Positions 41,882 to 63,524 of a DNA stretch of 64,000 nucleotides are shown here, one piece after another. The position numbers and the translations under genes were made by a program. This DNA is from Accumulibacter sp. (GTDB lineage: Bacteria > Pseudomonadota > Gammaproteobacteria > Burkholderiales > Rhodocyclaceae): NCBI RefSeq assembly GCF_031732815.1, contig NZ_JAVMKF010000268.1, positions 270 through 64,269 on the forward strand. The letters are read 5' to 3'. Every line of letters starts with the position of its first letter. Within the stretch, counting starts at the first letter, position 1. Below the pieces are notes generated by a model, which was not told the origin of the DNA, did not search any database, and saw nothing but the letters and a program-made list of their open reading frames with translations.

Positions 41882-52028
<10,147 letters not shown>

Positions 52029-52070
52029 GCGCGTCGATGAGCGCACTCCTCGTCCATTTTCGGTCGTGCC

Positions 52071-52856
52071 ATGCGTGAGCCGCGCAATCCGCTGGCGATC
52101 AGCTTTGCCGTCTGGCAGGCCATCTTCCTGCGCGAGGCGATCGATCGCCTGTTCGACATGCGCGCCGCCTGGTTCTGGTTGCTCATCGAGCCGGCCTTGC
52201 ACATCGCCTTCATCACCGTGGTCTACTCCGCCGTGCGCATGTATACGGTGGGCGGAATCGACGTTGCCCTATGGATCATCGTCGGCATGCTCGGCTTCTT
52301 CCTCTTTCGTCGTACTGCCATTCAGGTGATGTACGCGGTTGACTGCAATCGGCCGCTGTTTGCCTACCGACAGGTCAAGCCCTTCGATCCGGCGATCGTG
52401 CGCGCGGTTCTCGAAGCCTTCCTGATGGTGATCATCGCCAGCGCCATCCTCGCCGCCGCTGCCTTGCTCGGGCACGACAGCCTGCCGCGCGACCCCTTGC
52501 TGGTCGCCCTGGCGGTCGGCGGCCTGTGGCTTTTCGGTCTGGGCTACGGCCTCGTCGCGTCGGTGCTGATGGAACTGGTACCCGAGACCGAGCACATCCT
52601 GAAGCTCCTGATGATGCCGCTCTACCTGATCTCCGGCGTGATCATGCCGATGGCGTCGGTGCGCCAGCCCTATCGCGAGTTCCTGCTGATGAACCCGATC
52701 GTGCACGGTGTCGAGCTGGTCCGCCAGGGCTTCGTCCCTTACTACCATGTCGTTCCCGGAGTCGACATGGCCTACCTCTACGCCTGGGTCATCGTCAGCC
52801 TGCTCCTCGGTTTGCTGCTCTACCGCCGTTTCGCTTTGCAGTTGGTGATGAAATGA
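52071..52856 (+). CDS. kpsM: Capsule ABC transporter permease (KpsM/Wzm), 261 aa
   Basis: ABC-2 permease pattern (W..IEP, YLISG, MNP..H..EL.R) with multiple TM segments. Confidence 0.9.
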   Translation: MREPRNPLAISFAVWQAIFLREAIDRLFDMRAAWFWLLIEPALHIAFITVVYSAVRMYTVGGIDVALWIIVGMLGFFLFRRTAIQVMYAVDCNRPLFAYRQVKPFDPAIVRAVLEAFLMVIIASAILAAAALLGHDSLPRDPLLVALAVGGLWLFGLGYGLVASVLMELVPETEHILKLLMMPLYLISGVIMPMASVRQPYREFLLMNPIVHGVELVRQGFVPYYHVVPGVDMAYLYAWVIVSLLLGLLLYRRFALQLVMK

Positions 52857-53515
52857 TCGTCGTCAACGATATCCACAAGCGCTACAAGACCGAGCACGGC
52901 GTCGGCCGCTGGGTACTGCAGGGCGTCAGCCTGAACATTCCGCGCAAGCTCAACGTCGGGTTGATTGGCGCCAATGGGGCGGGAAAATCGACCCTGCTGC
53001 GCCTGATCGGCGGCGTCGATCACCCCTCGAAAGGATGGATAGAGCGTCGCTGCCGCGTCTCCTGGCCGATGGGTGAGGGCGGTCTCGAGGGCACGCTGAG
53101 CGGGCGGCAGAACGCCAAGTTCGTTTGCCGTGTGCACGGGCACCAGGCCGACCTGGCCGACCGACTGGCTTTCGTCGAGGACTTCTCCGAGTTGCGCGAA
53201 GCCTTCGACGAACCCGTCAGCACGTACTCGACCGGCATGCGCTCGCGCCTGCAGTTTGCCCTCTCGCTCGCCTTCGACTTCGACGTCTACATCTCCGACG
53301 AAGTGACCGCCGCCGGCGATGCCGCATTCCGCAAGAAAACGGCGACCGCATTCAAGGAGATGGCCGATCGCGCCGGGCTGATCATGGTGGCGCATGACGA
53401 AGGCACCTTGAAGGAGTTTTGCCAGTCGGGGATCTGGATTCATGCCGGCAAGGCTTATTGGTTCGATGCCATTGATGATGCCCTCAAGGCTTACAAGGAG
53501 GCGATCCCGCAATGA
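52853..53515 (+). CDS. kpsT: Capsule ABC transporter ATPase (KpsT/Wzt), 220 aa, no C-terminal CBM
   Basis: ATG 52853 overlaps the kpsM stop; GANGAGKST, YSTGMRSRL, YISDE. Confidence 0.92.
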   Translation: MIVVNDIHKRYKTEHGVGRWVLQGVSLNIPRKLNVGLIGANGAGKSTLLRLIGGVDHPSKGWIERRCRVSWPMGEGGLEGTLSGRQNAKFVCRVHGHQADLADRLAFVEDFSELREAFDEPVSTYSTGMRSRLQFALSLAFDFDVYISDEVTAAGDAAFRKKTATAFKEMADRAGLIMVAHDEGTLKEFCQSGIWIHAGKAYWFDAIDDALKAYKEAIPQ

Positions 53516-54684
53516 CGGAAAGCGCAGACACTCAGAGCACTCCCCCACCGACCCGACTGAACGGGCGTCTGGCGCGGGCTGGCAGCGGCTGGCTGTCGAT
53601 CCGCGTGTTTTCCCGGCTGATCCGCCTGAGCGCGCTGCTTGCCTTGCTGGGAACCGTCTACTGGGCGCTCGTCGCTTCCGACCGCTACGTGTCGGAAGCC
53701 AATGTGATCATTCGCAAGACCGATTCGCTGAATGCCCCGGCGCTCGATTTCTCGCTGCTGGTGTCTGGCGTTGCCGGAGTGAATCGGCCGGACCAGCTCC
53801 TTCTGCGCGAGTACCTGCTCTCGGTGGACATGCTCAAGGCGCTCGACGCCAAGCTCGACCTGCGTTCGCATTACAGCGACTCCGGCCGTGACATTGTCTC
53901 GCGCATGTGGTTCAAGGATGCCTCGATGGAGTGGTTTCACCGCCATTTCCTGGGCCGCCTCAGTGTGGATTATGACGACTTCGCCGGTGTCCTGCGTTTG
54001 CGCGTACAGGCCTACGACGCGCAGACCGCGCAGGCAATCTCCAGCATGCTCGTTCAGGAAGGCGAGCGCTATATGAATCAGCTTGGCCACGAGATGGCCG
54101 AAGCGCAGGTGAGCTTCCTGATCAAACAGGTCAACGCCGCCCAGATTCGCTTTCAGGAAGCCAGCCAGCGCCTGCTCAACTTCCAGAACGAGAAAGGCCT
54201 GCTCTCGCCGCAGGCGACGGCGGAAAGCATCAGCACGATCATTGCCGGACTGGAAACGCAGCGCGCCCAGATTCAGACGCAGTTGGGTTTCCTGCCCAAG
54301 ACGCTCGACCGTGATCACCCGAACATCGTCATGCTCAGGCAATCGCTGGCCGCTGTCGACCGCCAGATCCAACAGGAAAAGGCAAAACTCGCGACGCCCT
54401 CGGGCAAGACACTGAACGTTTCGGTCGAAGAGTTTCAACGCCTGCAGATGGAAGTCGGTTTCACGCAGGATCTCTACAAGTCGTCGCTCGTCGCGCTGGA
54501 AAAAGGGCGCATCGATGCCTCCCGGATGCTGGAGAAGGTCTCCGTCCTGCAGGCGCCGACGCTGCCTGAATACCCGATGGAGCCACGCCGGATCTACAAC
54601 ACGATCGTCACCCTGCTGGTCGCTGCCATGCTCGCCGGAATTCTCAAGCTGCTGGAGAGCATCGTCATGGACCACCTTGATTGA
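53512..54684 (+). CDS. kpsE: Capsule export inner-membrane co-polymerase (KpsE/WcbD), 390 aa
   Basis: Two TM segments, ASDRYVSEA, LREYLLSVDM, LDLRSHY, PTLPE..P.R. Confidence 0.88.
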   Translation: MTESADTQSTPPPTRLNGRLARAGSGWLSIRVFSRLIRLSALLALLGTVYWALVASDRYVSEANVIIRKTDSLNAPALDFSLLVSGVAGVNRPDQLLLREYLLSVDMLKALDAKLDLRSHYSDSGRDIVSRMWFKDASMEWFHRHFLGRLSVDYDDFAGVLRLRVQAYDAQTAQAISSMLVQEGERYMNQLGHEMAEAQVSFLIKQVNAAQIRFQEASQRLLNFQNEKGLLSPQATAESISTIIAGLETQRAQIQTQLGFLPKTLDRDHPNIVMLRQSLAAVDRQIQQEKAKLATPSGKTLNVSVEEFQRLQMEVGFTQDLYKSSLVALEKGRIDASRMLEKVSVLQAPTLPEYPMEPRRIYNTIVTLLVAAMLAGILKLLESIVMDHLD

Positions 54685-57600
54685 TGACCCCCTTGCCACA
54701 GGCGACGCGCGCCATGAACAGAGTTCAAGATTGCTCGATAGCGGTGACGGCAGAGACGCCAGACGCGGATCTGCAAGAGGAGAACCGGCTGCTCTTCAAT
54801 CAGCTGCACGTCGTGCAGGAGGAACTGGAACGACTGCACGAGGGTGGTGCTGGTCCCGGCGGGCAGGCGCTGGCCGGTCGGCTGACGATCGACTGGGTCG
54901 ACGACGGCTTGCCCGAGCTGATGGCCGAGAACTTGCGCTACCGCAGCCTTCTCGAAACGCAACAGGAAGTGCACCGGATCGAGGCGCAACACACGCTGGC
55001 CGGCAAACTGGGCGAGATCCTGATCGCGGGAACAACTTCGACAGCGGCACTGCTTGCCGTGCCAGGCAAACTGCACAAGGTCTGGCAGGCCGCGAAGGAA
55101 CAGACGCCGCCCGACGAGCTCGGCGGCAAGGGCTTCGAAAAGGTGCTGGCGGCGTATCGGCAAGGCGGCCTGGATGCGGTGGATGCCTTGCTCAGCAGCC
55201 TGCCGCTGTCCGCCGGCATGCAGGCCAACGCCTTCACCGCGCTGGCCCGCAGCCTGATGCATCAGGAGCCGGTCCGCTCGGCCGAACTCGCCCGGCGCGC
55301 CTACGCCAGCGAACCACGTCCGTTTCGCCTCAAATGGCTGGCCTTCAGGCTGCACGAGGCGGGCGAACTGCTGGAAGCCGCCGCCCTGCTCGAAGTCCTC
55401 CCAGCGAACCTGCATTTCAGCGATTCCGAGCTGCGACACGCCGAGCGTCTGCGCCGCGAGGCAGCGCGAGTCCGTCTGCAGCAGGCGAAGGAAAAGTGCG
55501 CGTTCTCCGAACGGCGCGCCGAAGTCGAGCGCCAGATCAGCAGCCTGAGCCAGGCACGCGACGAACAGGCGGCGCTCGCCGCGCAGCGCCTGGGCGAGAT
55601 CGAGAAGCTCACCCAGGAACACGCAGCTTTGCGCGCGCGCAGCCTGGAGCTGCAGAGCAAAGTGGCGGCGGTGAGCGAAGCGCGCGACGAACAAGCGACG
55701 CTTGCCTTGCTGCGCTTGCGCGAGATCGCGCAACTGCAACGCGCGCACAGCCAGCTCGAAGACGAACACTCGGTGCTGCAGACAGGAATGGCTGCGCTCG
55801 GTCAGGCACACGACGAGCAGTCGGCGCTCGCCGCGCAGCGCCTGGGCGAGATCGAGAAGCTCACCCAGGAACACGCAGCTTTGCGCGCGCGCAGCCTGGA
55901 GCTGCAGAGCAAAGTGGCGGCGGTGAGCGAAGCGCGCGACGAACAAGCGACGCTTGCCTTGCTGCGCTTGCGCGAGATCGCGCAACTGCAACGCGCGCAC
56001 AGCCAGCTCGAAGACGAACACTCGGTGCTGCAGACAGGAATGGCTGCGCTCGGTCAGGCACACGACGAGCAGTCGGCGCTCGCCGCGCAGCGCCTGGGCG
56101 AGATCGCAGGACTGCAGCAGGCGCTCAGCCGGATCGAACTCGAACAATCGGTCTTGCTCACGGGTCGCCGGGCGCTGCAGGCGGAAGTGCTTGCGCTGAG
56201 CGCAGCGCGTGACGAGCAGTCGGCGCTTGCCGCGGAAAGGCAGAGCAGGCTGGACACCCTGCAGTTCACTCGCGATCGGCTCGAAGACGAGCGCTCCGTC
56301 TTCTCGGCGCGCTGCCAGATGCTGCAGGACGATGTCGCCGCCCTGAAGCAGGCGAGAGACGAACGCGGCGCGTTGGCGGAACGGAGGAAAAGCGAGATCG
56401 AGGCGTTGCAGCAGGCGCGGGATGAACTCGAGCGCGAGCAATCGGCCTTGCGCGCGCATTGCCAGGCGTTGCAGGACGATGTCGCCGTCCTGACGCAGGC
56501 GAGGGACGAACGCGGCGCGCTGGCGGAACGGAGGAAAAGCGAGATCGAGGCGCTGCAGCAGGCGCGGGATGAACTCGAGCACGAGCAATCGGCCTTGCGC
56601 GCGCATTGCCAGGCGTTGCAGGACGATGTCGCCGTCCTGACGCAGGCGAGGGACGAACGCGGCGCGCTGGCGGAACGGAGGAAAAGCGAGATCGAGGCGC
56701 TGCAGCAGGCGCGGGATGAACTCGAGCACGAGCAGTCGGCCCTGCTGGGACGCTCTCAGATGCTGCAGGAAGAACTCGCAAGGCTGACGCAAGCGCGTGA
56801 TGAGCAGTCGGCGCTGGCCGCGCAGCGGCAGGATGATTTGGCGATCACGCAGGCGGCGCTTCGTCAGCTCGAAGAAGCGCAGTCGGCATGGTCGGAGCGT
56901 CATCAGGCGCTGCAGGAGGAAGTGGCCGCGCTGGTGCGTGCGCGCGATGAACGCAGCACGCTGGCCGCACAGCGCCAGGGCGAAATCGATACCCTGCAAC
57001 ATGCGCGCAGCCGACAGGAGCAGGAGATGTCGGCGCTGCTCACGCGCAGTCATGCGCTGCAAGCGGAAGTCGCGGCGCTCGCACGAGTGCGCGACGAGCA
57101 GACGATCCTCGCTGCGCAGCGGCAGGGGGAAGTGCTCCAACTGACCAGAACGCAGGCTTCGCTGGAAAGCGAGAACGCCGCCCTCGGCCTGAAACTGCGC
57201 GAGCTCGAGCAGCATCTTGAACAGTTGATGCGCGCGCGCGACGAACAGACCAGACTGGTCGCGCAACAGATTCAGGAGTTGGCGGCAGCGCTGGCCGCGA
57301 ACAGCGGCGCGGTAGACGAGGAGTTCAGGAAGCAGGCCGACGAACTGATCCGCCTGCGCAAGTACCTCGACGGTGCGTTCAGGAACGAAATCGCCAATTC
57401 GAGCAAGCAGACGCAGGCGCTCATCGGCTTGCAGAGCTACTACGCAACCGGCGAACTGCCGACGGTGAACAGCGAACGCCATAGCTGGCCGGTCAGCCCG
57501 GATTTCGGTCTCTATCTGGTCGAACTCGTGGCCCTCAACGACTATGACCTGATCATCGAGTTCGGTTCGGGGATCTCGACCGTCATCGTCGCCAAGGCGC

Positions 57601-58112
57601 TGGCCACGATGGCCGCGCGCGAAGACGGCCGGGCGCCGACGCACTTCATCTCGTTCGAGCATCTCGAACCGTACTACCGGCAGACCCGGGCGCATCTGCA
57701 GCAGGCGGGACTCGTCGAAAACGTGCAACTGGTGCTCGCACCGCTGCAGGATTGGCTGGCGCCGAACGGCAATACCTACGCCTATTATGACTGCCAGGCG
57801 GTGCTGGCGAATCTCGCGCAGCAGTACGCCGGTGGCGTCAGGCGAGTCCTGGCGATCATCGATGGTCCGCCCGCCGTGACCGGCAAGCATGCCCGCTATC
57901 CGGCGGGTCCGCTGCTCGTCCAGCATTGTGTCGGCGCGCGCATCGACCTGGTGCTCGACGACTACATCCGCGAAGACGAAAAGGAAATTGCCCAGCTCTG
58001 GCAAGGCGAGCTGCAGGCGGCCGGAATCGCCCATCGGATGAGCGAGCGTAAACTGGAAAAGGACGCCTGCCTGATTTCGGTCTACCCGGCCGAGAATGGG
58101 TCCGGCGAGTGA
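54681..58112 (+). CDS. Large coiled-coil protein: helical/TPR-like N-terminus, 560-aa heptad-repeat stalk, C-terminal class I SAM-methyltransferase-like domain, 1143 aa
   Basis: ENRLLFNQLHVVQEELE; twelve (A/V)(R/H)DE(Q/R) units; LIIEFGSGISTV, ISFEH and IIDGPP methyltransferase-like motifs. Confidence 0.75.
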   Translation: MMTPLPQATRAMNRVQDCSIAVTAETPDADLQEENRLLFNQLHVVQEELERLHEGGAGPGGQALAGRLTIDWVDDGLPELMAENLRYRSLLETQQEVHRIEAQHTLAGKLGEILIAGTTSTAALLAVPGKLHKVWQAAKEQTPPDELGGKGFEKVLAAYRQGGLDAVDALLSSLPLSAGMQANAFTALARSLMHQEPVRSAELARRAYASEPRPFRLKWLAFRLHEAGELLEAAALLEVLPANLHFSDSELRHAERLRREAARVRLQQAKEKCAFSERRAEVERQISSLSQARDEQAALAAQRLGEIEKLTQEHAALRARSLELQSKVAAVSEARDEQATLALLRLREIAQLQRAHSQLEDEHSVLQTGMAALGQAHDEQSALAAQRLGEIEKLTQEHAALRARSLELQSKVAAVSEARDEQATLALLRLREIAQLQRAHSQLEDEHSVLQTGMAALGQAHDEQSALAAQRLGEIAGLQQALSRIELEQSVLLTGRRALQAEVLALSAARDEQSALAAERQSRLDTLQFTRDRLEDERSVFSARCQMLQDDVAALKQARDERGALAERRKSEIEALQQARDELEREQSALRAHCQALQDDVAVLTQARDERGALAERRKSEIEALQQARDELEHEQSALRAHCQALQDDVAVLTQARDERGALAERRKSEIEALQQARDELEHEQSALLGRSQMLQEELARLTQARDEQSALAAQRQDDLAITQAALRQLEEAQSAWSERHQALQEEVAALVRARDERSTLAAQRQGEIDTLQHARSRQEQEMSALLTRSHALQAEVAALARVRDEQTILAAQRQGEVLQLTRTQASLESENAALGLKLRELEQHLEQLMRARDEQTRLVAQQIQELAAALAANSGAVDEEFRKQADELIRLRKYLDGAFRNEIANSSKQTQALIGLQSYYATGELPTVNSERHSWPVSPDFGLYLVELVALNDYDLIIEFGSGISTVIVAKALATMAAREDGRAPTHFISFEHLEPYYRQTRAHLQQAGLVENVQLVLAPLQDWLAPNGNTYAYYDCQAVLANLAQQYAGGVRRVLAIIDGPPAVTGKHARYPAGPLLVQHCVGARIDLVLDDYIREDEKEIAQLWQGELQAAGIAHRMSERKLEKDACLISVYPAENGSGE
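55571..56106 (+). repeat. Perfect 252-bp tandem repeat (about 2.1 copies, 84 aa unit)
   Basis: Unit starts at 55571, 55823 and 56075; the ORF track shows identical shadow ORFs offset by 252. Confidence 0.92.
56324..56741 (+). repeat. Near-perfect 147-bp tandem repeat (about 2.8 copies, 49 aa unit)
   Basis: GCAGGACGATGTCGCCG starts at 56324, 56471 and 56618. Confidence 0.9.
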
Positions 58113-58486
58113 AGGTTCTGAGCGTTCTCGGCACTCGCGCCGAGGCGACCATGCTGGCGCCTCTGGTCTACCCGGTGCACCTCAAACCGAATGTCCAGAC
58201 GACCGGGCGCCGGCTGCTTTCCGGCGGGCCCGAGGTCCACCTGGCTGCGCCGCTCGGCGACCAGCCTTTCGTCTTCCTGATGGAGCGTAGCGCGCTCCTC
58301 ATCACCGATACAGGCGGCGTCCAGGAGGAAGCTCCCGCATTGGGCAAGCCGATGCTGGTAATGTGCGACACGACCGAGCGGTCGCAGGCGGTGCACGCCG
58401 CTACGGTCAGGCTCGTCGGCACCGACTTGCGCATCCGCAACATCCTGCAATCCAGGCGGAAGCGCTCGGCGAGGAGGCTGGCGTGA
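58109..58486 (+). pseudogene. wecB: UDP-N-acetylglucosamine 2-epimerase remnant with large in-frame internal deletion
   Basis: MKVLSVLGTRAEATMLAPLV joined directly to YPVHLKPNV...TDTGGVQEEAPALGKP...DTTER; only 125 aa. Confidence 0.85.
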
Positions 58487-58619
58487 GCCGTCGGCGAGAG
58501 CGACGAAGTGCGGTTCCGGGCGCCCGGGTTCGCGTCGGGACCGCCCAACGGCGCGCTGCGCTCGGCGTCGCGGCGCCGTTCGCCGCTTGAGCAACGAAAT
58601 AGAAAGGGGAATGCACGCC

Positions 58620-61600
58620 ATGTCGCTGCAGCAATCGATCGTCCGTCAGGCGGCGAAAGAGTTTTCCCAAGGCAACTACCATCTGGCGCTCGATCTCTAC
58701 CGCCAACTGGCCAGCCGTCTGGGCGAGAAGTATTTTTCGGCCAACATCGCGCTCTGCGAGAAGCGTCTGAGCAGCCAGGGCCGCCGCGACTGTTCGCCGC
58801 TTCCCCTGCAAGCGATCAAGGTAGCTTGCGTGATGGACGAGTTCACCTTCCACAGCTACCAGCCCGAATGCAATCTGTTGGCGCTGACGCCGCAGGGGGC
58901 AATTGCCGAGCTGGCGGGCTTCGAGCCGGACCTCCTGTTTGTCGAGTCTGCCTGGCGCGGCAAGGACGAACTCTGGAACCGCAAGATCGGCGCGCTGAGC
59001 AGTGAGCTGCGCTCGGTGCTGCAGTGGTGCCGCCGCCGACAAGTCCCGACGCTGTTCTGGAACAAGGAAGATCCGATCCATTTCGAAACCTTTCTGACCA
59101 CGGCGCAGCAGTTCGATCACGTGTTCACCACCGATATCGACTGCATTGCCCGCTACAAGGCGGCGCTCGGCCATTCGCGTGTCTACCTCCTCCCCTTTGC
59201 CTGCCAGCCGAAGATGCACAATCCGCTCGAGCTCTATGCACGCAAGGATGCGTTCTGCTTCGCCGGGGCCTACTACGTTCGTTACCCCGAACGGACGCGC
59301 GACCTCGAAACCTATGTCGCCGAGTTCCCGCAGTTCAAACCGCTCGAGATCTTCGACCGCAACTTCGGCAAGGACGACGCCAACTACCAGTTTCCGCCCA
59401 AGTATCAACCGTATATCGTCGGTACGCTGCCCTTCAGCGAGATCGACAAGGCGTATAAGGGCTATCGCTACGCGATCAACCTGAACTCGATCAAGCAGTC
59501 GCAAACGATGTTCGCGCGCCGGGTGTACGAGCTGCTCGGCTCGAACACGATCACCGTAAGCAACTTCTCACGCGGCGTTCGGCTGCTCTTCGGCGACCTG
59601 GTCATCGCCAGCGACAGCGGCAAGGAGATCGTCAACCGCCTGCAAAACCTGTCTGGCGACGAGGGCGAGAAGCTCCGCCTGGCCGGCTTGCGCAAGGTGA
59701 TGCTGGAACATACGTATCAGCACCGACTGGCCTACGCGGCGTGCAAGGCGCTCGGCTGGCGCGGCAGCCACGCCTTGCCGTCGATGGTCGTTGCGGCACG
59801 CGTCAGCTCGGCGGACGATTGCCGCTGGCTGATCGACAACTTTCGAAGGCAGACCCACACCGGCAAGCGGCTGGTCGTCGCGCTCGCGCCGAACGTCCAG
59901 ATGACCGGCCTGACGCCCGAGGAACTCGCGGCAGGCCGCATTCTCACGCCGCAGCAGGCGGCGCAGGCGCGCCTGGGCGACTTGGTCGCGGCCGACGAAT
60001 GGCTGGCGGCGATGGCGGTTGACGACTACTACGGGCCGAACTATCTGCTCGACCTGGCGTGCGCGACGCGCTACAGCGACGCTCGGGTGATCGGCAAGGC
60101 GGCACACCATGCTCTTGTAGAGGGCAATATTCGCCTGCTCGAGGCCGACACCGCATATCGGCCAACCGTTCGCCTGGTGCGCCGATCGTGCGCGGTGCAC
60201 GCGGATACGCTGCCGCGCGAAGCTTTCCTGTTGCGCTGGCTCGAGCCGCCGGAAGGCGAAGCGTGGTGCCCGCCGGGTCTGGCGATCGACCCCTTCAACT
60301 ACTGCCGGAACGGCCGCCAGGCGAGCGATCCAAGCGAGCTCGGACGGCGCGTCGACGATCTGCCGCTCGACACCGGAGTGAGCATCGACGAACTCGTGCT
60401 CGCCGCGGAAAACATTCCGCCGGCGAGTTTCGATGAAAGCAATCTGGCGAAGTGGAGCGCCAGTCGCTTGCGCGAGCTGCACAGCAGCGTCAAGCACCCT
60501 CAGATCAGCTTCCAGGCGGAAGCGGCCGGCCTCACGGTGTGCTCGTCGCTGCCTGACGGCAAGCACGAGTATCTCTACGCACGCGAGGATTTGCCCCTCA
60601 GCGCACTGCCGGTCGGTCGGACCTTGGAAACCCACCTCGCAGCCAGTCCTGGCCTCGACCTCCAGTATGTCTTCGTCTTTCTCGACGCGCGGAAACAGAA
60701 GATCAGTCATCTCATTTACGTCAGCAATCGCAACTACTCGGCGCAGATTCCGCCGGAAACCGCGTTCGTCCGTTTCGGCTGGCGTATCTCGGGCAGTGGA
60801 ACGACGACCCTCAGGTACCTGCTGTGGGGGCATCTGAAGCTGGAACCGGCGCGACTGCTGGGGCGCAGCGACACCCTGCTGCTCACCAACCATTACCCGA
60901 GTTACGACGATCTCTACCGCAACGCCTTTGTCCATAGCCGCGTGAGCGCATATCGCAAGCGCGGAGTGATTGTGGATGTGTTCCGCCTGCGTCGCGATGT
61001 GCCTACCTGCTACCACGAGTTCGAAAACGTGGATGTGGTCACCGGTGGGCAGCTTGCATTGCGCAAACTGCTTGAGGGCGGACGCTACAAGAGAGTCATG
61101 GTGCACTTCCTGTCCGAAGAAATGTGGGAGGTGCTTGAGCACTATCAGGAGCTCGAACTTACTGTCTGGGTCCACGGGGCAGAAATCCAACCGTGGCATC
61201 GGCGTGAGTACAACTATCGGGACGAGCAGGAACGTGCAAAGGCGATGCGGGAAAGCAAGCTGCGCACGGCTTTCTGGCATCGCGTTCTCAACCCGATGCC
61301 CCAGAATCTGAAGCTTGTCTTTGTTTCCCGGTACTTTGCTGAAGAAGTATTCGAAGACCTGGGCTTCCGCTTGCCCGATGACCGGTACACAGTCATCCAC
61401 AATCCTATCGATACCGAGCTCTTTTCGTATCAGACAAAACCCGCCGAGCAGCGCAAGCGTGTCCTTTCAGTCAGACCGTACGCCTCCCGCCAGTATGCCA
61501 ACGATCTGAGCGTGGCCGCGCTTCTGAAGCTTTCCGAATCTCGATGTTTCAGTGACATGGAGTTTCGGATGATCGGGGACGGAAAGCTCTTTGAAGAGAC

Positions 61601-63524
61601 GCTTCAGCCTTTACGGAAGTTCCCAAATGTCCAGGTCGAAAAGCGCTTCCTGACGCACGCGGAAATAGCCGCCCTGCACAAGGAGTACGGTGTGTTCCTT
61701 GTGCCAACGAGATGGGATTCGCACGGCGTGTCTCGCGACGAAGCAATGGCCTCCGGTCTGGTGCCCGTCACTACCTCTGTTGCGGCAATTCCGGAGTTCG
61801 TCGATGAAACCAGCGGGATCGTCGTTCCTCCAGAAGACGCCGTCGAGTTGGCCAGTGCCATGGAGAAATTGTATGAGTCCCCAGAGTTGTTCAAACGGCT
61901 GTCGAAAGGCGCGGCAGAACGAGTAATCGCAGGCCGTGCGTCACGGCTCGTGACCGATCAGGAAATCCGGTTCTTACAACGCGCTATCGAAGCAAGAGCA
62001 AGCAATCGACCGGTATCTTTTCTTTCGTTCGATGTTGAGGCGCTGCCAGGGCGCGCTGAGGAAGACCCCTTGGGGCGCTTGGTTTGGGGGCGGTTCGACG
62101 GCAAAGAGTTTGGCATTCGCCGAATCAGTCAAATTCTGAAAAAGTACGGGATCAAGGGAAATTTCCTGGTCGACTTCTCCGCGTGCCTTCTATACGGCGA
62201 CAAAGCGGTCCGCGAGGTTATTGACTTCCTGATCTCTGAGCAGCACGAAGTGCATGTTCACCTGCATTCCGAATGGGTTATCCGAAAATGGGGTCTGTCG
62301 GACAAGAACTGGTCGGATGGGCCAGTGGGAATGGACCTCGTTGATGACCGACTGAGCGACTCCTTGCTGCGATTTGCCGCATTCAAGTACCGCCAATTTG
62401 TCGGACGGTCTCCAGTCCTCTTCCGTGCGGGTGCCTACAAATTCAATTCGGAGACCCTGGCTGCAGCAAAAGCGACAGGTTTCAAGGCATGCAGCAACTT
62501 CAACAGTGCCCGGCACGCGGCTGCCTGGAAAAGTGAAGATCAGGCAGTCGTCAACAATGAGCCATTTCAGTGGGCAAACGGGCTGATCGAAATACCGGTT
62601 GATCTCTCTCCGGAACCATTGAGCCACGACTGGGCGGTCTATAAGGGTAGCTTTGAACGTGTGCTGTCCAGAAAGAAGCTGCAAACCTTCAACTTGACGA
62701 TGCATTCATGGTCGTTGCTGACGCGGGACGCGAATGGACACTTCGTCGGATTTTCTGCTGAGCATGATGAACGCTTGCACAGAATGTGCGAGCACCTGAA
62801 GGCCAATAGCAGGCCGATGGGGTATGAGGAATTCCTGTCCGCGCACAGCGACATCAGGTTGGCGAACGACAATCGCTGCATACTGGCGCCGGGTGGAAGC
62901 GGTGAGGCGATCGTCCATTGCAGCGTTTGCAGTGCGAGCTATGGAAAGCCGCTGAGCAGTGATGTTTGTCCAAGCTGCGAATCTCGTGCTCGTCATCGTC
63001 AGATTCTCGACGTGCTAACGAAGATAGGCAACCCCTTCGACGGCCGCGATGTGTTGGCGTGTCACGCCAATCCCGTGGAGAAGCAAGCCATTCTTGGAAA
63101 GGCCAATACCGTCTTGAACTTTGATGTCCGCCCTCTGGGTTATGCCGACATACAGATGGATATTCAGGCGATGGATAAGGTCGAGGACAGCAGTTTCGAT
63201 GCATTCGTAGCGATCCACGTGCTGAATCATGTGGAAGACGATGCCAAGGCGATCCACGAGATTCACCGGGTATTGAAACCAGGTGGCCTCGCATTGGTTA
63301 CCATTCCATGTCGGGAAGGCGCCTCGACAGAGCGATGCGAAAACATCACGGAGCACTACGGCAAAGAAGCCTTGACTCAGTTTGGCGTTGGAACTTACCG
63401 GCGCTACGGTTTGGACGATGCAACTCGATTGTTCGCGAAGTCCTTTGTCGTTTCGAAATACAGAGGGTATGACGAAATCAGCAATACCCACGAATACGTC
63501 TTCCTACTGTCGAAGACCGAATGA
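58620..63524 (+). CDS. Multi-domain capsule glycosyltransferase (CgeB/DUF3880-like GT, GT4-like, deacetylase-like, Zn-finger + methyltransferase)
   Basis: FWNKEDP/FTTD/LPFA, AINLNS..FARRVYE; GVSRDEAMASG; LSFDVE..HVHLH..FRAGAY; CxxC..CxxC; HVLNHV..IHRVLKPGG. ATG 58620 has SD AAGGGG; alternative starts at 58587 and 58611. Confidence 0.85.
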   Translation: MSLQQSIVRQAAKEFSQGNYHLALDLYRQLASRLGEKYFSANIALCEKRLSSQGRRDCSPLPLQAIKVACVMDEFTFHSYQPECNLLALTPQGAIAELAGFEPDLLFVESAWRGKDELWNRKIGALSSELRSVLQWCRRRQVPTLFWNKEDPIHFETFLTTAQQFDHVFTTDIDCIARYKAALGHSRVYLLPFACQPKMHNPLELYARKDAFCFAGAYYVRYPERTRDLETYVAEFPQFKPLEIFDRNFGKDDANYQFPPKYQPYIVGTLPFSEIDKAYKGYRYAINLNSIKQSQTMFARRVYELLGSNTITVSNFSRGVRLLFGDLVIASDSGKEIVNRLQNLSGDEGEKLRLAGLRKVMLEHTYQHRLAYAACKALGWRGSHALPSMVVAARVSSADDCRWLIDNFRRQTHTGKRLVVALAPNVQMTGLTPEELAAGRILTPQQAAQARLGDLVAADEWLAAMAVDDYYGPNYLLDLACATRYSDARVIGKAAHHALVEGNIRLLEADTAYRPTVRLVRRSCAVHADTLPREAFLLRWLEPPEGEAWCPPGLAIDPFNYCRNGRQASDPSELGRRVDDLPLDTGVSIDELVLAAENIPPASFDESNLAKWSASRLRELHSSVKHPQISFQAEAAGLTVCSSLPDGKHEYLYAREDLPLSALPVGRTLETHLAASPGLDLQYVFVFLDARKQKISHLIYVSNRNYSAQIPPETAFVRFGWRISGSGTTTLRYLLWGHLKLEPARLLGRSDTLLLTNHYPSYDDLYRNAFVHSRVSAYRKRGVIVDVFRLRRDVPTCYHEFENVDVVTGGQLALRKLLEGGRYKRVMVHFLSEEMWEVLEHYQELELTVWVHGAEIQPWHRREYNYRDEQERAKAMRESKLRTAFWHRVLNPMPQNLKLVFVSRYFAEEVFEDLGFRLPDDRYTVIHNPIDTELFSYQTKPAEQRKRVLSVRPYASRQYANDLSVAALLKLSESRCFSDMEFRMIGDGKLFEETLQPLRKFPNVQVEKRFLTHAEIAALHKEYGVFLVPTRWDSHGVSRDEAMASGLVPVTTSVAAIPEFVDETSGIVVPPEDAVELASAMEKLYESPELFKRLSKGAAERVIAGRASRLVTDQEIRFLQRAIEARASNRPVSFLSFDVEALPGRAEEDPLGRLVWGRFDGKEFGIRRISQILKKYGIKGNFLVDFSACLLYGDKAVREVIDFLISEQHEVHVHLHSEWVIRKWGLSDKNWSDGPVGMDLVDDRLSDSLLRFAAFKYRQFVGRSPVLFRAGAYKFNSETLAAAKATGFKACSNFNSARHAAAWKSEDQAVVNNEPFQWANGLIEIPVDLSPEPLSHDWAVYKGSFERVLSRKKLQTFNLTMHSWSLLTRDANGHFVGFSAEHDERLHRMCEHLKANSRPMGYEEFLSAHSDIRLANDNRCILAPGGSGEAIVHCSVCSASYGKPLSSDVCPSCESRARHRQILDVLTKIGNPFDGRDVLACHANPVEKQAILGKANTVLNFDVRPLGYADIQMDIQAMDKVEDSSFDAFVAIHVLNHVEDDAKAIHEIHRVLKPGGLALVTIPCREGASTERCENITEHYGKEALTQFGVGTYRRYGLDDATRLFAKSFVVSKYRGYDEISNTHEYVFLLSKTE

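Follow-up and report, generated by a model that had tools for sequence, protein, structure and literature searches.

A heptad-cassette coiled-coil protein with a predicted methyltransferase fold, a candidate chain terminator and ruler in an Accumulibacter capsule locus

Within a 64,000-nucleotide stretch of an Accumulibacter sp. genome (the window; positions 270 to 64,269 of contig NZ_JAVMKF010000268.1, hereafter C268), the seventh gene of a co-directional operon containing Kps-type capsule export genes encodes a protein of three parts: a helical, tetratricopeptide repeat (TPR)-like module near the N terminus (the N-module), a coiled coil of ~620 residues, and a C-terminal domain with a predicted methyltransferase (MT) fold (the C-domain). 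We favor, with moderate confidence and largely by analogy, the reading that this protein acts in the cytoplasm as terminator and molecular ruler of the chains of a Kps-exported capsule of the rkp/wcb type. Specifically, i) the N-module would dock onto the polymerase complex at the membrane, in which a family GT4 glycosyltransferase (GT) encoded at C268:68188-69582 is the best candidate partner; ii) the ~620-residue coil, taken to be parallel, would project a cation- and S-adenosylmethionine (SAM)-dependent O-methyltransferase to a distance of about 85-92 nm; iii) chains that reach the distal active site would be methylated at the nonreducing end, so that elongation is blocked and a modal chain length is set; and iv) whole-heptad cassettes of 35, 42, or 49 residues would allow unequal recombination to alter the stalk length with the register intact, creating natural length alleles. 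With 0.4-0.5 nm per sugar, a chain would need some 180-230 residues to span 85-92 nm, a size typical of capsules and not of O antigens. SAM use, terminal capping, the docking partner, the oligomeric state, and the ruler function are all things that we infer. We advance only tentatively a broader claim with three joint parts: that this is the first dedicated ruler or terminator for Kps capsules; that the N-module is a general polymerase-docking adaptor with which different capping enzymes are combined (a pyruvyltransferase and two kinds of MT, COMT-like and FkbM); and that capsule length is tuned naturally by gain and loss of whole 5-, 6-, or 7-heptad cassettes.

The mechanical open reading frame (ORF; 54681-58112, forward strand) is open and gives 1143 residues from TTG 54681. 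ATG 54684 is the likelier start, because it overlaps the kpsE stop codon (TGATG) and because the near-identical record P0002 starts at the same place; through this overlap the gene appears to be translationally coupled to kpsE. A first-pass annotation, made by a model from the nucleotide letters and ORF translations, had described the product as a heptad-modular coiled coil with a C-terminal methyltransferase-like domain. Translation, heptad profile, and AlphaFold2 (AF2) modeling support this, giving a layout of docking-type module, very long coiled coil, and methyltransferase fold.

The stalk keeps its heptad register without a break from residue ~262 to residue 880. When the sequence is written in rows of seven, hydrophobic residues hold two columns, and one heptad position is 62% L/I/V/M/F; the Fourier term at a period of 3.5 residues is 8.2, against less than 0.7 at 3.0, 3.6, 3.67, and 4.0. 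At a rise of 0.1485 nm per residue the coil would measure ~92 nm, and its twelve repeat units alone ~83 nm. These units, already counted in the first-pass annotation, are reproduced by the recurrence of the motif [AV][RH]DE[QR] at residues 292, 334, 376, 418, and 460 (a spacing of 42, four times) and then from residue 509 to residue 852 at a spacing of 49, eight times. The exact 252- and 147-bp DNA duplications reported there were likewise found by two routes: Tandem Repeats Finder (TRF) gives 252 bp in 2.2 copies with 99% match and 147 bp in 2.9 copies with 97% match, and direct offset comparison gives 285 exact positions at offset 252 (55570-55854 equal to 55822-56106) and 153 at offset 147 (56435-56587 equal to 56582-56734). 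Units of 35, 42, and 49 residues recur in the clade of the window protein and in a Caballeronia clade.

Comparison between strains suggests that the stalk changes by whole units. We measured stalk length from one conserved landmark, RLKWLAFRLHE, to another, GLQSYYATGELP; it is 700 residues in the window protein and 616, 560, and 511 residues in metagenomic relatives, all equal modulo 7; the C-domains of these relatives are 96-97% identical, and their DNA is 92-99% identical. A single species group thus spans 511 to 700 residues, a landmark-to-landmark length of ~76-104 nm. In one of the relatives, locus L077 from a bioreactor sludge metagenome, 12 kb of DNA at 98.7% identity is interrupted by a single indel of exactly 252 bp, leaving one copy of the 252-bp unit where the window has two. 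Contigs from the Logan assemblies break at the repeats, and there k-mer depth separates one from two copies of the unit between samples: the repeat unitig has a depth of 41.7 in run X1 against 18.6 in the flanks (2.2-fold, hence two copies), the ratio is again 2.2-fold in run X2, and in run X5 a depth of 102 against flanks of 113 and 98 (0.9- to 1.0-fold) indicates one copy. The comparison of repeat number between strains that had been suggested as a check therefore finds one unit fewer in L077, and the depth data agree. Of the earlier idea that length varies by repeat slippage, the variation holds, in the form of whole-unit alleles between strains; "slippage" is too specific a term for duplications of 147-252 bp, which are not microsatellites and would change by unequal recombination.

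The Caballeronia clade, built on a 35-residue cassette, has stalks of 325, 374, 409, and 514 residues, again equal modulo 7, and landmark distances across the whole family run from ~230 to 700 residues, the window protein being the longest. Among close pairs of unequal stalk length, 42 of 56 (75%) differ by a multiple of 7; for distant pairs the figure is ~20%, against a chance expectation of 14%. A heptad rule valid for the entire family was ruled out by these distant pairs and by the close pairs outside the window clade, and differences in stalk length showed no enrichment for an 11-residue period.

Relatives of the N-terminal part indicate which end of the protein would face the polymerase. 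We aligned its first 299 residues with 20 relatives, modeled it with AF2, and searched with residues 25-285 alone. The model, with a predicted local distance difference test (pLDDT) of 86.5, is all-helical, an isolated conserved helix being followed by a TPR-like bundle. In the helix L37 and Q40 are invariant, and N34, L41, V44, Q45, L48, and E49 nearly so (numbered as in alignment A2, where residue 1 is M2 of the ORF); a genome-wide scan for a second EENxLLxxQLHxVQEELE motif, as a possible partner helix, found one copy only. Foldseek comparison of the bundle with the PDB gave no match at E ≤ 1e-3, with weak partial TPR-like matches only, and Pfam TPR_19 is touched in 5 of 21 relatives. The bundle, whose consensus is LGxxLIxGxxSP...PPxxLGGKxF...ANAxTALAR...PRPFRxKWLAFRL, is a mobile domain without a Pfam family. 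We also considered a membrane anchor at P127-K138 and dropped it, a hydrophobic-moment search for an amphipathic helix having given nothing convincing.

Proteins that share the N-module carry different enzymes at the other end of the spacer. In P0263 and P0264 (Burkholderia, Paraburkholderia) the same module and a stalk of ~240 to 500 residues end in an FkbM-type MT. The 1675-residue P0276 of Novosphingobium runs from an MT (residues 28-172) through a helical segment of ~290 residues to the N-module (507-660) and two GT4 modules (694-1071 and 1268-1642); P0275 runs from a pyruvyltransferase (17-337) to the N-module (471-665) and a GT4; and in P0274 and P0272 the N-module stands directly before GT4, or before GT2 plus TagF-like modules. 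Because P0272 and P0274-P0276 place the module beside GT modules, the N-module probably marks the polymerase end, with the modifying enzyme at the far end of the spacer. Outside the window, ~4 kb from its end, lies a separate GT4 gene (C268:68188-69582) whose product shares 50.5% identity with the module-fused GT4 of P0276; orthologues of this separate GT4 occur in loci with N-module-type proteins (L003, L006, L007, and L019). On this Rosetta-stone argument, which draws on the fusion and on the orthologues, the N-module would bind the polymerase, and the separate GT4 is its best candidate partner.

The first-pass annotation had called the C-terminal "EFGSG" region methyltransferase-like, and structure prediction bears this out. 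The AF2 model of the C-domain (mean pLDDT 88, predicted template modeling score 0.80) has the seven-stranded class I topology in canonical strand order, with an inserted β-hairpin at residues 1022-1036 and an invariant DGPP...ARYPA loop. Foldseek gives 400 PDB matches at E ≤ 1e-3, the best of them cation-dependent catechol O-methyltransferase (COMT)- and caffeoyl-CoA O-methyltransferase (CCoAOMT)-type enzymes, with E values from 6e-10 to 1e-8, TM-scores of 0.55-0.70 (normalized to the target), and sequence identities of 13-19%. Sequence searches of the PDB, by phmmer with the whole protein and by hmmsearch with a C-domain profile, returned only matches at E > 0.2, to COMT and generic MTs, so that the fold assignment comes from AF2 and Foldseek. 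In an alignment of the C-terminal 268 residues with 31 relatives (32 sequences, 33-66% identity), the run E960-F-G962-S-G964 after β1, H994 after β2, D1061 after β4, and D1093-D1094 after β5 are invariant, and position 993 is always E or D. D1061, D1093, and D1094 appear to correspond to the COMT metal ligands, as matched by topology and not by superposition. The invariance of the SAM-loop and metal-site residues over 32 diverse sequences favors catalysis over an inactive binding domain. In view of a sub-threshold score and a profile alignment confined to motif I (both given below), we do not assign the C-domain to Pfam Methyltransf_24, which 10 of 32 relatives match at E < 0.01, and we call it a distinct family of ~3950 clusters at 50% identity, with a COMT-like fold and predicted O-methyltransferase activity.

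The surrounding genes (Table 1) place this protein in a capsule locus. A type I polyketide synthase (PKS; 41882-49477) with the domain order KS-AT-DH-MT-ER-KR-ACP is followed by a BioF-family, 8-amino-7-oxononanoate synthase (AONS)-like enzyme (49474-50805) directly upstream of kpsD. Since a type I PKS and an oxoamine-synthase-like gene are linked to Kps export genes, the locus is, by its gene content, of the rkp/wcb type. The Kps-type capsule context claimed earlier is likewise supported, with KpsD, KpsM, KpsT, and KpsE upstream and GTs downstream. The stalk gene had also been placed between kpsE and the polymerizing GT; its position between kpsE and a large multidomain GT stands, with a wecB remnant intervening, and the GT4 that gene fusion links to the N-module is another gene. 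We compared neighborhoods by tblastn of the window proteins against 76 loci encoding C-domain relatives, many of which are cut by contig ends. The full order PKS-AONS-KpsD-M-T-E-[gene]-WecB-GT was found in Alcaligenes (three species), Paraburkholderia lycopersici, Methylobacillus, and Nitrincola, and in the flanks fetched KpsT is present at 38 of the 76 loci, WecB at 32, the GT at 29, and the PKS at 7. More broadly, members of the stalk-gene family share operons with KpsMTE genes in Beta- and Gammaproteobacteria, Chlorobi, and cyanobacteria.

Table 1. Features of the capsule locus and of the coiled-coil gene, in window coordinates (contig C268 coordinate minus 269)
Feature	Coordinates	Strand	Basis or remarks
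Upstream operon: type I PKS, BioF/AONS-like, KpsD (outer membrane polysaccharide export, OPX), KpsM, KpsT	41882..53515	+	profile searches
kpsE (polysaccharide co-polymerase class 3, PCP-3)	53512..54684	+	NCBIfam TIGR01010 BexC/CtrB/KpsE, E 2e-83
Coiled-coil gene with predicted methyltransferase domain	54684..58112	+	1142 aa from ATG 54684
Conserved N-terminal helix, EENxLLxxQLHxVQEELE, aa 26-54	54756..54842	+	alignment, AF2 helix
All-helical TPR-like N-module, aa ~76-262	54906..55466	+	AF2 pLDDT 86.5
Continuous heptad coiled coil	55464..57320	+	~620 aa; heptad-phase profile, Fourier signal
Twelve repeat units, 4 x 42 aa + 8 x 49 aa	55554..57233	+	560 aa
Exact 252-bp tandem duplication (84 aa, 12 heptads)	55570..56106	+	TRF, offset comparison, k-mer depth
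147-bp (49 aa) tandem array, 2.9 copies	56323..56745	+	exact core 56435-56734
Predicted class I (COMT-like) methyltransferase fold, aa 936-1134	57486..58082	+	AF2, Foldseek, invariant columns
wecB remnant (UDP-GlcNAc 2-epimerase)	58109..58486	+	111-125 aa, model positions ~211-305 of 347
1645-aa multidomain GT: CgeB-like GT, GT4, deacetylase-like region, C-terminal Methyltransf_11	58587..63524	+	profile searches

The genome is a metagenome-assembled genome (MAG) of 4.44 Mb in 328 contigs, 95.9% complete, in the whole of which a search for canonical KpsC/KpsS (Pfam Capsule_synth) returned a partial match of 23-24 bits only, to a 499-residue ORF on contig C320 beside a nucleotidyltransferase and an epimerase. 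The 111-residue wecB remnant recurs in L077 (8131-8466) and in L080 (13018-13353), relatives at 92-99% DNA identity, and other genera carry a full-length wecB here; elsewhere in the MAG (contigs C23 and C320) there are two full-length Epimerase_2 genes. The C-terminal Zn-ribbon and Methyltransf_11 of the large GT (62600-63524, residues ~1450-1645) are missing from the orthologues of Alcaligenes and Paraburkholderia, lie in a stretch of lower GC content (0.55 versus 0.65), and resemble a separate gene at C268:66641-68146. Contig C268 runs 22.7 kb past the window end, and the interval C268:64283-76340 encodes a Methyltransf_23-type MT, a stand-alone Methyltransf_24 protein (59.8 bits), a GT4, two deacetylase-like genes, a CgeB-like plus GT2 membrane synthase, a sulfatase-family protein, and a deacetylase-like, Zn-ribbon, and Methyltransf_11 protein paralogous to the C-terminal third of the large GT; two runs of N interrupt genes there. 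The sequence is present in activated-sludge and bioreactor runs, and in two bioreactor metatranscriptomes (X7 and X18) contigs cover the gene and its neighbors (54400-58700) at ≥ 99% identity, so that the operon is probably transcribed in situ, DNA carry-over being possible.

We wish to set out together the observations that weigh against a capsule terminator and ruler: i) KpsT, at 220 residues, consists of the ABC domain only and has no carbohydrate-binding module (CBM) that could read a cap; ii) the locus holds five other MT domains, in the PKS, at the C terminus of the large GT, and in three downstream genes, so that methylation could be internal; iii) the decayed wecB suggests that the locus has been remodeled; iv) another Accumulibacter genome (G022, locus L090) encodes a short-stalked version of 444 residues that lacks the N-module, in a diverged locus of the order KpsMTE...MT-WecB-GT whose homology to the window was seen by tblastn, megablast having found nothing; v) the C-domain scores 22.1-23.4 bits against Pfam Methyltransf_24, below the cut-off of 26.3, and hhalign of its profile with the genuine Methyltransf_24 protein of the same contig aligns 28 columns, covering motif I only; vi) the residue three positions after D1061 is a proline (D-G-P-P), with no lysine at a site that we take to be that of the catalytic Lys144 of COMT; vii) heptad quantization of stalk length applies to 36 of 36 close pairs inside the window clade and to 6 of 20 outside it; and viii) the differences in repeat number were seen between strains, and a look for variants within a population in the Logan contigs, which break at the repeats, gave no informative joints.

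The first two of these points also speak for a scaffolded decorating enzyme, one that O-methylates internal residues of the chain and whose coil serves only to oligomerize the protein or organize the complex, setting no length. Such an enzyme would be in keeping with a locus rich in modifying enzymes, several deacetylase-like genes among them, and with the existence of stalkless C-domain proteins such as P0131 (282 residues). However, a strict-heptad stalk of 620 residues that varies in whole cassettes exceeds what oligomerization would need, and the fused relatives hold enzyme and polymerase at opposite ends of a spacer, an arrangement poorly suited to modification during sugar addition. We consider this alternative unlikely, while according it real weight.

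A second alternative would have the C-domain act at the lipid end of the chain, on an amino-lipid primer derived from the PKS and AONS, or be an inactive binding domain. In several genera the gene shares an operon with the PKS-AONS pair, and the C-domain is only distantly related to characterized MTs. Against an action on the lipid, most loci have KpsMTE, WecB, or the GT without a PKS-AONS pair in reach, the PKS being found at so few of the 76, and the PKS carries an MT domain of its own; against an inactive domain stands the invariance of the SAM-loop and metal-site residues described above. This alternative we judge improbable. Finally, it is very improbable that the repeat array is a short-read assembly artefact masking a gene with fewer units, as a MAG in 328 contigs and Logan contigs broken at the repeats might suggest, because the depth ratios of 2.2-fold in X1 and X2 and of ~1-fold in X5, the run for which the independently assembled L077 shows a single copy, track copy number, and independent assemblies encode proteins of 943, 992, and 1058 residues, all in frame and in heptad register.

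Within Accumulibacter a C-domain gene occurs in 4 of 37 species. The window C-domain is 66% identical to Caballeronia and Paraburkholderia proteins, against 50-52% identity to those of the Accumulibacter loci L009 and L010. Because its closest relatives lie in Caballeronia and Paraburkholderia, and not in Accumulibacter, these sequences suggest horizontal acquisition of the locus.

If the protein is indeed a ruler, it addresses how Kps-type capsules set their chain length, a matter stated to be unresolved (PMC12220298), and would add a control step new for that export pathway. The natural whole-cassette alleles are ready material for asking whether capsule length scales with the stalk, and cultivable hosts are available in Alcaligenes, Paraburkholderia, Caballeronia, Herbaspirillum, and Comamonas. 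Interactions with phages, predators, and the immune system depend on capsule length, which in Accumulibacter may, speculatively, also affect the floc or granule matrix in wastewater treatment. Our literature search turned up no description of this protein family, nor of any stalked methyltransferase encoded at a Kps or rkp/wcb locus.

Among enzymes of known function the C-domain is closest to COMT and CCoAOMT (Pfam Methyltransf_3 and Methyltransf_24), with which it shares the predicted fold, the Gly-rich SAM loop, an acidic residue after β2, and three acidic residues at the metal site. It departs from them in its low identity (13-19%), its sub-threshold Pfam score, the extra β-hairpin, the DGPP...ARYPA loop, and the absence of the catalytic-base lysine.

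In export machinery and locus type, the nearest comparisons are other capsules. As in the group 2 capsules of E. coli and Neisseria, export relies on KpsM, KpsT, KpsE, and an OPX protein; unlike those systems, for which no terminator is known, the operon here includes a stalked enzyme, and poly-Kdo linker enzymes are apparently absent. Nor, to our knowledge, is a terminator with a coiled coil on record for the rkp or wcb loci. As in rkp-1 of Sinorhizobium and wcb of Burkholderia, which encode the RkpA/WcbR PKS and the RkpG/WcbT members of the oxoamine synthase family (PMC3908369), a type I PKS and an AONS-like enzyme lead the KpsD/M/T/E set; the locus described here differs in that no canonical KpsC/KpsS was found in the ~96%-complete MAG.

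In architecture, the nearest comparisons are O-antigen terminators, for which alone coiled-coil terminators are established (PMC11231755). Two features of such rulers are found here as well: an extended coil between a module and an MT fold, and a place in an ABC-transporter glycan locus with GTs downstream. In Klebsiella pneumoniae O12 WbbB and O7 ORF6, terminator and GT modules belong to a single polypeptide and are joined by a coiled coil, and in Klebsiella O4 ORF7 a TPR-like helical bundle lies beside the coil (PMC11231755). The protein of the window resembles these in pairing a putative terminator with a coiled coil, and O4 ORF7 in the TPR-like bundle next to the coil, and the O7 and O12 fusions to GTs recall P0275 and P0276; in contrast, the stalk protein and the GTs are separate here, the catalytic domain shows no relationship to GT137, GT99, or the MT-kinase of O7, and the exported polymer would be a capsule and not an O antigen.

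The model for the proposal is WbdD of E. coli O9a/O8 and Klebsiella O3/O5, an O-antigen terminator with a coiled-coil ruler, the length of whose stalk is believed to determine that of the chain (PMC11231755, PMC3482155). A WbdD-like role is suggested because the fused relatives of the window protein share the polymerase-to-far-enzyme layout of the proven O-antigen rulers WbdD, WbbB, and ORF6 of O7. Like WbdD, the protein would carry an MT and a polymerase-recruiting region at opposite ends of a long coiled coil, in an ABC-transporter pathway. The order is reversed, however, with dock, coil, and MT here against MT/kinase, coil, and membrane helix in WbdD; the MT family is COMT/Methyltransf_24-like; the export set is KpsMTED with an ATPase lacking a CBM; and the stalk is several times longer than that of WbdD. 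We found no strongly amphipathic terminal helix of the kind seen in the WbdD family, and WbdD, whose structure has been solved (PMC3482155), is not among the PDB matches of the whole protein or of the C-domain profile. Of the earlier comparison with WbdD, then, the common functional layout survives as an analogy, and homology does not; the protein would be WbdD-like by analogy and not by descent. It stands apart in its reversed domain order, an MT of a new family, an N-module shared among proteins with swappable end enzymes, a PKS-lipid locus apparently without KpsC/KpsS, and length alleles built of heptad cassettes.

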